Assembly (NCBI RefSeq): GCF_002854065.1
Contig: NZ_CP024147.1
Strand: one strand, 5' to 3'
DNA: 64,000 bases
From: Escherichia coli
Lineage (GTDB): Bacteria; Pseudomonadota; Gammaproteobacteria; Enterobacterales; Enterobacteriaceae
The notes under the pieces were generated by a model. It was not told the DNA's origin. It made no database searches and worked only from the letters and a program-made list of their open reading frames with translations. Made by a program: the position numbers and the translations under genes. Shown in pieces: positions 35,936-36,171 of the stretch (its first letter is position 1; each line of letters starts with the position of its first letter).

Positions 35936-36034
35936 ATGACAGCCCTTCTACGAGTGATTAGCCTGGTCGTGATTAGCGTGGTGGTGATTATTATCCCACC
36001 GTGCGGGGCTGCACTTGGACGAGGAAAGGCTTAG
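35936..36034 (+). CDS. ilvL: ilvGMEDA leader peptide
   Basis: 32-codon ORF MTALLRVISLVVISVVVIIIPPCGAALGRGKA, dense in Leu/Val/Ile codons, followed by a terminator. Confidence 0.95.
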   Translation: MTALLRVISLVVISVVVIIIPPCGAALGRGKA

Positions 36035-36056
36035 AGATCAAGCCTTAACGAACTAA

Positions 36057-36090
36057 GACCCCCGCACCGAAAGGTCCGGGGGTTTTTTTT
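36057..36090 (+). terminator. ilv attenuator (intrinsic terminator)
   Basis: GC-rich hairpin GACCCCCGCACC GAAA GGTCCGGGGGT followed by a T8 run, 23 bp after the ilvL stop. Confidence 0.9.
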
Positions 36091-36120
36091 GACCTTAAAA
36101 ACATAACCGAGGAGCAGACA

Positions 36121-36171
36121 ATGAATAACAGCACAAAATTCTGTTTCTCAAGATTCAGGACGGGGAACTAA
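36121..36171 (+). CDS. ilvX: Small ORF IlvX (16 aa)
   Basis: ATG...TAA mini-[19 protein letters not shown] ending 2 bp before the ilvG ATG. Confidence 0.7.

Follow-up and report, generated by a model that had tools for sequence, protein, structure and literature searches.

The region described here occupies positions 35,936 to 36,171 of a 64,000-nucleotide stretch of Escherichia coli DNA (contig NZ_CP024147.1; the whole stretch is called the window, and all positions are those of the window). It carries, on the plus strand and directly upstream of ilvG, the leader peptide gene ilvL, a set of overlapping RNA hairpins closing with an intrinsic terminator, and the 16-codon open reading frame (ORF) ilvX, and is almost certainly the leader of the ilvLXGMEDA operon, a ribosome-mediated, multivalent transcription attenuator. 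A first-pass annotation, made from the letters alone, had named it the ilv attenuator with ilvL, a terminator and a mini-ORF ilvX. This identification was borne out by identity to annotated genomes, by scores above family cut-offs and by RNA folding. The features of the leader are as follows:

35936..36034, plus strand: ilvL leader peptide gene, 32 codons and a TAG stop, with 15 Ile/Leu/Val codons (ORF reading and family profiles)
35963..35995, plus strand: regulatory codon run L V V I S V V V I I I, ilvL codons 10-20
35976..36004, plus strand: protector hairpin, pairs 35976-84:35996-36004 and 35986-88:35993-95, present in the minimum free energy fold
36001..36067, plus strand: antiterminator, GUGCGGGG (36001-08) paired with CCCCGCAC (36060-67), plus 36014-18:36053-57, from the nascent-RNA fold
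36026..36046, plus strand: small hairpin AAGGCUU/AAGCCUU, whose 5' arm and loop include the ilvL stop codon, -6.5 kcal/mol
36055..36090, plus strand: the attenuator, an intrinsic terminator with stem pairs 36055-64:36077-86 and 36066-68:36073-75, a GAAA loop and U8 at 36083-36090

Translation of ilvL from the ATG at 35936 to the TAG at 36032-36034 gave a product of 32 amino acids, MTALLRVISLVVISVVVIIIPPCGAALGRGKA, comprising 4 Leu, 6 Val and 5 Ile residues (15/32) with VVISVVVIII at residues 11-20; the 32 codons, the 15 Leu/Val/Ile codons and the run given by the first-pass annotation are thereby confirmed. Among 734 small ORFs of 20-60 amino acids taken from the six frames of the window, ilvL ranked first for the density of its Ile/Leu/Val run (10 of 11 residues; the runner-up had 8). 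The product matched Pfam PF08046 with 61.5 bits (cut-off 25), covering residues 1-32 of 32, and the NCBIfam equivalog NF007744 with 81.9 bits (cut-off 59). Based on sequence homology, it is a member of the IlvGEDA operon leader peptide family defined by these two profiles. ORFs listed on the minus strand across the region were short and without any support, and no Rfam family scored above noise on that strand.

Many complete E. coli genomes contain a segment 100% identical to 35790-36180 (391 nt), and 5,424 of 5,426 genomes carry the region. In the identical genomes the NCBI Prokaryotic Genome Annotation Pipeline (PGAP) lists ilvL, ilvX and ilvG, preceded by the divergent yifB and followed by ilvM, ilvE and ilvD. 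From 35886 to the ilvG start the sequence matches the leader of K-12 MG1655 (ilvL b3766, ilvX b4669) base for base, and for this reason experiments on the K-12 leader apply directly here. For that identical sequence, attenuation by all three amino acids has been published (PMC6123439, PMC8406616); the review PMC6123439 describes a 32-residue leader peptide with 15 branched-chain residues and sets out the attenuation mechanism. Ribosome profiling of K-12 places footprints on ilvL, and RNA density falls 45-fold from ilvL to ilvG, reduced to only 9-fold once ribosomes pause in ilvL (PMC8384417). Ribosome occupancy of ilvL, which had been proposed as a check on the initial reading, is thus positive in published data. 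Both the amino acid response and the ribosome occupancy would hold for the present copy by analogy with K-12. In addition, an ilvL fusion is repressed by the small RNA GcvB (PMC9299463).

Three helices of the leader compete for the same bases. The protector, with a predicted free energy of -15.5 kcal/mol alone, grows into a larger 5' domain through pairing of 35942-46 with 36005-09 (-28.7 kcal/mol for 35940-36011). The antiterminator (-28.5 kcal/mol) was seen in nascent RNA with a 3' end at 36068-36072 and encloses the stop-codon hairpin 36026-46. The terminator hairpin 36055-36086, its A-U base included, has a predicted free energy of -21.2 kcal/mol; its GC-rich core begins at 36058, 23 nt past the ilvL stop, and the T run at 36083-36090 has exactly eight members, in agreement with the hairpin and T8 first reported 23 bp after ilvL. 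The antiterminator overlaps the protector at 36001-04 and the terminator at 36055-67, making the helices mutually exclusive, and folding, the other check proposed at the outset, accordingly predicted alternative antiterminator and terminator structures. The leader RNA 35902-36092 folded at -70.2 kcal/mol compared with -50.8 +/- 4.1 kcal/mol for 200 dinucleotide shuffles (z = -4.69), none of which (0/200) was as stable. Since ilvL holds the top-ranked Ile/Leu/Val run of the 734 ORFs and the leader folds better than its shuffles, a chance pattern is excluded: the combination of an Ile/Leu/Val-rich ORF and a folded leader exceeds chance.

The influence of a translating ribosome was modelled on nascent RNAs ending before the terminator 3' arm, with the RNA 5' of the ribosome leading edge removed. 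This procedure replaced equilibrium folds with a ribosome masked at various codons, which were dropped; they always kept the terminator and permitted pairs spanning the ribosome. In silico, an A site on ilvL codons 11 to approximately 18-19 destroyed the protector and allowed the full antiterminator to form, and from codon 20-21 onward the antiterminator 5' arm was covered and only the terminator was possible. The outcome was the same for leading edges of A+9, A+11 and A+14, the size of the footprint being itself inferred within the model. The Ile/Leu/Val run at codons 10-20 falls exactly in the stall window which favours read-through. The leader therefore displays what defines a leader-peptide attenuator, namely a codon-rich ORF, a terminator before the first structural gene, mutually exclusive helices and, in silico, an effect of ribosome stalling.

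Based on these structures, attenuation would proceed as follows. Transcription presumably starts about 35 nt 5' of ilvL, and a ribosome would translate ilvL while the polymerase is still in the leader. With Ile-, Leu- and Val-tRNAs all charged, the ribosome would pass codons 10-20, reach the stop codon and cover GUGCGGGG (36001-36008); the terminator 36055-36086 would then form and the RNA would be released at U8 ahead of ilvX and ilvG. Should any one charged tRNA be scarce, the ribosome would stall within the Ile/Leu/Val run and melt the protector, whose 5' arm (35976-35984) corresponds to codons 14-17. Such a stall would free 36001-36008 to pair with CCCCGCAC (36060-36067) in the terminator 5' arm, and the resulting antiterminator would block the terminator and let transcription enter ilvX-ilvG-ilvM-ilvE-ilvD-ilvA. 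If ilvL were not translated, the protector and the larger 5' domain would sequester the antiterminator 5' arm, making termination the default.

Conservation of the leader was examined in relatives collected with an IlvG-specific peptide motif, one genome per species. Because the search used the ilvG motif and not the leader, the sample is unbiased toward leader conservation. Twenty-one genera of Enterobacterales had enough upstream sequence to be analysed, and a leader ORF of 32-33 codons with a common peptide core was found in all of them (21/21). Positions 35976-36020 and 36059-36068 were nearly invariant, synonymous sites included, as is to be expected of bases that belong to a codon and also take part in two competing helices. 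Counted by alignment cells across these genera, pairing was kept in 90.7% for the protector, 87.4% for the antiterminator and 96.0% for the terminator, compared with 28-71% in a control in which partners were slid by 1-3 columns. The main helix of the antiterminator was paired in 98.8%, with seven of its eight pairs invariant. Three pairs of the terminator were changed on both sides, and none of 500 shuffles matched the observed covariation score; the stop-codon hairpin likewise had three pairs with changes on both sides.

Ile/Leu/Val-rich leader ORFs of 21-32 codons were also found before ilvG in Aeromonas (L060, L042), Salinivibrio (L076), Bisgaardia (L118) and Aliikangiella (L107). As in E. 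coli, in each of these four distant genera the codon run is covered by a protector, an antiterminator reaches to the 5' arm of the terminator, and the terminator itself is GC-rich and carries a U tract. Their leaders are unalignable to that of E. coli, and the same three overlapping helices are built from different sequences. In Aeromonas the antiterminator GCUCGGGG/CCCCGAGC occupies the same place, with two pairs changed on both sides relative to E. coli. None of the four reached the PF08046 cut-off (12.9 bits in Aeromonas, no match in the other three), none matched Rfam RF02744 or any other Rfam family at gathering score, and none had an ilvX ORF. In one locus from a metagenome-assembled genome of the Gammaproteobacteria (L063) the automatic analysis settled on an internal run of U, and its result could not be used. 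The four distant genera provide stronger comparative support than the Enterobacterales alignment.

The window segment 35865-36154 matched RF02744 over model positions 1-300 with 157.1 bits (cut-off 88, E = 2e-49). The same model matched upstream of ilvG in Pectobacterium, Pantoea, Photorhabdus, Budvicia and Rosenbergiella (L104 3944-4243; L073 253-561; L009 9637-9931; L069 3530-3833; L053 2902-3207). RF02744 is titled 'Soft rot Enterobacteriaceae Rev 39 5'UTR' (Rev39_5p_UTR), after a 5' untranslated region of Pectobacterium, with the ilv attenuator unmentioned, and its consensus draws one conformation only, that with the terminator. The model, which covers the ilvL attenuator and the start of ilvX, amounts to a family of the ilv attenuators of Enterobacterales.

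Between the attenuator and the first structural gene lie the following features:

36109..36114, plus strand: Shine-Dalgarno sequence GAGGAG of ilvX, 6 nt 5' of its ATG, read from the sequence
36121..36171, plus strand: ilvX, 16 codons, ATG at 36121 and TAA at 36169-36171
36130..36144, plus strand: nucleotide-level core AGCAYAAAATTCTGT inside ilvX, conserved together with its synonymous sites across genera
36161..36165, plus strand: ilvG Shine-Dalgarno sequence GGGGA, located in ilvX codons 14-15, column pattern CGGGGAA conserved
36174..37820, plus strand: ilvG, intact, 548 amino acids, acetolactate synthase II catalytic subunit, the first structural gene under the attenuator

The ilvX stop codon is followed by CT and then by the ilvG ATG at 36174, so that the 16-codon ORF first noticed between the attenuator and ilvG does end 2 bp before the latter. 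The ilvX DNA is identical to K-12 ilvX (b4669); the product is called 'peptide IlvX' by PGAP in the identical genomes and 'uncharacterized protein IlvX' in the K-12 record, with no function reported. A hairpin drawn by Rfam over the ilvX start (36109-19:36139-49 plus AUG:CAC) was rejected as lacking covariation support; it was 75% paired, and 41 of 500 shuffles did equally well.

Three explanations of the role of ilvX were compared. The likeliest, held tentatively, is that ilvX matters mainly by its position and not by its peptide, either as an upstream ORF acting in cis which delivers ribosomes to ilvG by termination-reinitiation or by keeping the ilvG ribosome-binding site unfolded. The Shine-Dalgarno sequence (as GAGGAG or AAGGA), the start, a length of 16 codons and a stop codon 2 nt ahead of the ilvG ATG were kept in 16 genera belonging to three families, Enterobacteriaceae, Erwiniaceae and Pectobacteriaceae (in Citrobacter the start is GTG), and this conservation of signals and frame supports ilvX as a probably translated ORF. 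The ratio of non-synonymous to synonymous variation (pN/pS) was 0.70 in frame compared with 0.77 and 1.29 in the other frames, a very noisy measure over 15 codons, and second codon positions were the most variable; the peptide sequence thus appears weakly constrained and the position conserved. Codons 14-15 are fixed because the ilvG ribosome-binding site, with its GGGGA, lies there. Such a positional role fits less well with the conserved central motif S-I/T-K-F-C-F and with Photorhabdus, Rosenbergiella, Providencia and Aeromonas, which express ilvG without such an ORF; we know of no coupling experiment, and none was found in the literature.

It is doubtful that the 16-residue peptide functions in trans, as its annotation as a protein-coding gene would suggest. 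Hemm et al. (2008, 2010), as cited in PMC9299463, are given there as the source for ilvX encoding a small peptide, the ORF has stayed open over a wide divergence, and the K-F-C residues of the core are conserved. However, the core is conserved at synonymous sites as well and persists in genera without the ORF, which points to constraint at the nucleotide level; beyond the core there is little selection on the peptide, and no function has been reported for it.

It is improbable, in turn, that the conserved core at 36130-36144 is a binding site on DNA or RNA, for example for Lrp or GcvB. Three genera without the ORF still show the core AGCAYAAAATTCTGT: it was nearly intact in Rosenbergiella and could be recognised, despite substitutions, in Photorhabdus and Budvicia. 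The core is roughly palindromic, and positions 36129-36143 differ from the Lrp consensus YAGHAWATTWTDCTR at 2 positions on the minus strand and at 3 on the plus strand; Lrp represses the operon (PMC8406616), and PMC6123439 cites interactions of Lrp with DNA in the leader region of ilvGMEDA. Matches of equal quality occurred in the window at chance level, however (76 found, 66.6 expected). With regard to GcvB, ilvX RNA was enriched with this small RNA in RNA-seq data sets, but no repression of an ilvX reporter fusion by GcvB was seen (PMC9299463), and the RNA hairpin drawn at ilvX by Rfam is without covariation support. Tentatively, ilvX may be seen as a coupling upstream ORF that overlaps a binding site on DNA or RNA, its conservation being owed more to nucleotide sequence and position than to the peptide, because the core is seen in genera lacking the ORF and elsewhere only frame, length and stop are kept.

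Upstream of ilvL one further feature was read from the sequence:

35867..35895, plus strand: probable ilvPG promoter, -35 TTGTGC at 35867-35872, 17-nt spacer, -10 GTAACT at 35890-35895

K-12 differs from the window by 11 substitutions in the 467 nt compared, all of them upstream of 35886 (35751-35885). The -35 hexamer is TTGTGC in the window and TTGTAC in K-12, and three spacer positions differ too. Most E. coli genomes are 95-99% identical across 35751-35885, and the promoter region is therefore the variable part. The ilvPG promoter is well studied and is activated by IHF, which binds in upstream activating sequence 1 (UAS1) some 90 bp 5' of the start (PMC10783518); an AT-rich stretch upstream of the promoter agrees with this published UAS1/IHF region.

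The divergent neighbour yifB (comM-like Mg chelatase ATPase, minus strand) was given mechanically as an ORF at 34074-35789 of 571 amino acids with a GTG start far upstream, and is annotated at 506 amino acids in a genome with an identical leader. The shorter, annotated start is more plausible, because the 571-residue form would enter the ilvPG upstream region.

IlvG matched NCBIfam NF006524 over its full length with 1073 bits (cut-off 738). The gene is intact in the window and is a frameshifted pseudogene in K-12 MG1655. Given the general properties of acetohydroxy acid synthase II, the present strain is expected to be valine-resistant.

Several observations weigh against the reading of the leader as an attenuator, or on the details of its structural model. 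In the equilibrium fold of the complete leader the terminator was always present and the antiterminator absent, the latter forming only while the terminator 3' arm is untranscribed (RNA ending at 36068-36072). This behaviour is what a kinetic switch demands, but for the same reason the argument for the switch is a kinetic, co-transcriptional one solely. True covariation was sparse and confined to the terminator and the stop-codon hairpin. With the key bases nearly invariant, the comparative support rests mostly on conservation and not on compensatory change, and invariance alone neither supports nor opposes pairing. The transcription start near 35902 is inferred, being derived from a terminated leader which we take to be about 185 nt long. 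The consensus promoter and terminator scan did not call the ilvPG promoter, because its hexamers are weak, nor the plus-strand attenuator hairpin, because its stem carries an internal C.C mismatch.

Two published results also fit poorly. In PMC8384417 derepression is credited to pauses at ilvL Pro codons 21-22, which raise ilvG expression, whereas in the steric model a ribosome on these codons covers the antiterminator 5' arm and termination is predicted. The control used in that work, a CCA-CCG to GCA-GCG edit (window 35996-36001), removes two base pairs from the protector 3' arm; the protector is predicted to drop from -15.5 to -9.4 kcal/mol (about 6 kcal/mol weaker), and the edit is not structure-neutral. 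Because the edit weakens the protector and a ribosome there covers the antiterminator arm, the model suggests that the interpretation by Pro-Pro pausing may be confounded by RNA structure. Secondly, Term-seq 3' ends reported in PMC7815308 map to 36014 and 36020 (K-12 3950400 and 3950406) and not to the U tract. They lie within ilvL codons 27-29, just 3' of the 5' domain, and were scored not Rho-dependent; among the Term-seq supplement entries listed, none lay at the U tract of the attenuator. These ends may be trimmed products of decay or processing, or pause sites. Neither misfit challenges the identity of the element.

There is next to no chance that the hairpin arose by accident or is a common terminator without regulation beside a coincidentally Ile/Leu/Val-rich ORF, or that control is exerted by Rho or a protein instead of the ribosome: the scan that missed the plus-strand terminator and the equilibrium fold that lacks the antiterminator would favour it, but no same-strand gene ends upstream to need a terminator (yifB is divergent), a leader ORF with three overlapping helices recurs before ilvG in distant families, the nearby 3' end was scored not Rho-dependent (PMC7815308), and all the evidence for the attenuator speaks against it, the comparative data and the published K-12 work refuting it.

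Since 1980 the ilv attenuator has served as a standard example of multivalent attenuation, and the annotation of ilvX dates from 2008. The ilvL attenuator is already known in full, and the present copy differs from that of K-12 only outside the transcribed leader. The value of the locus is as a positive control, in that a genuine regulatory element was located, at exact coordinates, from a reading of sequence alone, and all checks agreed. The only reading with novelty concerns the reason for ilvX conservation, where the comparative data favour positional and nucleotide-level constraint. Points of interest to the specialist are the uninformative Rfam name and the misfit of the Pro-Pro pauses and the Term-seq ends to the simplest structural model.

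The leader follows the same logic as the trp, his, leu, thr and ilvBN attenuators, in which a codon-rich leader ORF precedes a protector, an antiterminator and a terminator that share bases, with a U tract at the end. There is no sequence homology to them; the Rfam models of the His and Thr leaders score only 14-16 bits here, far under their cut-offs. Unlike the trp, his, leu, thr and ilvBN attenuators, the ilv attenuator senses three amino acids together through the 15 Ile/Leu/Val codons of ilvL.

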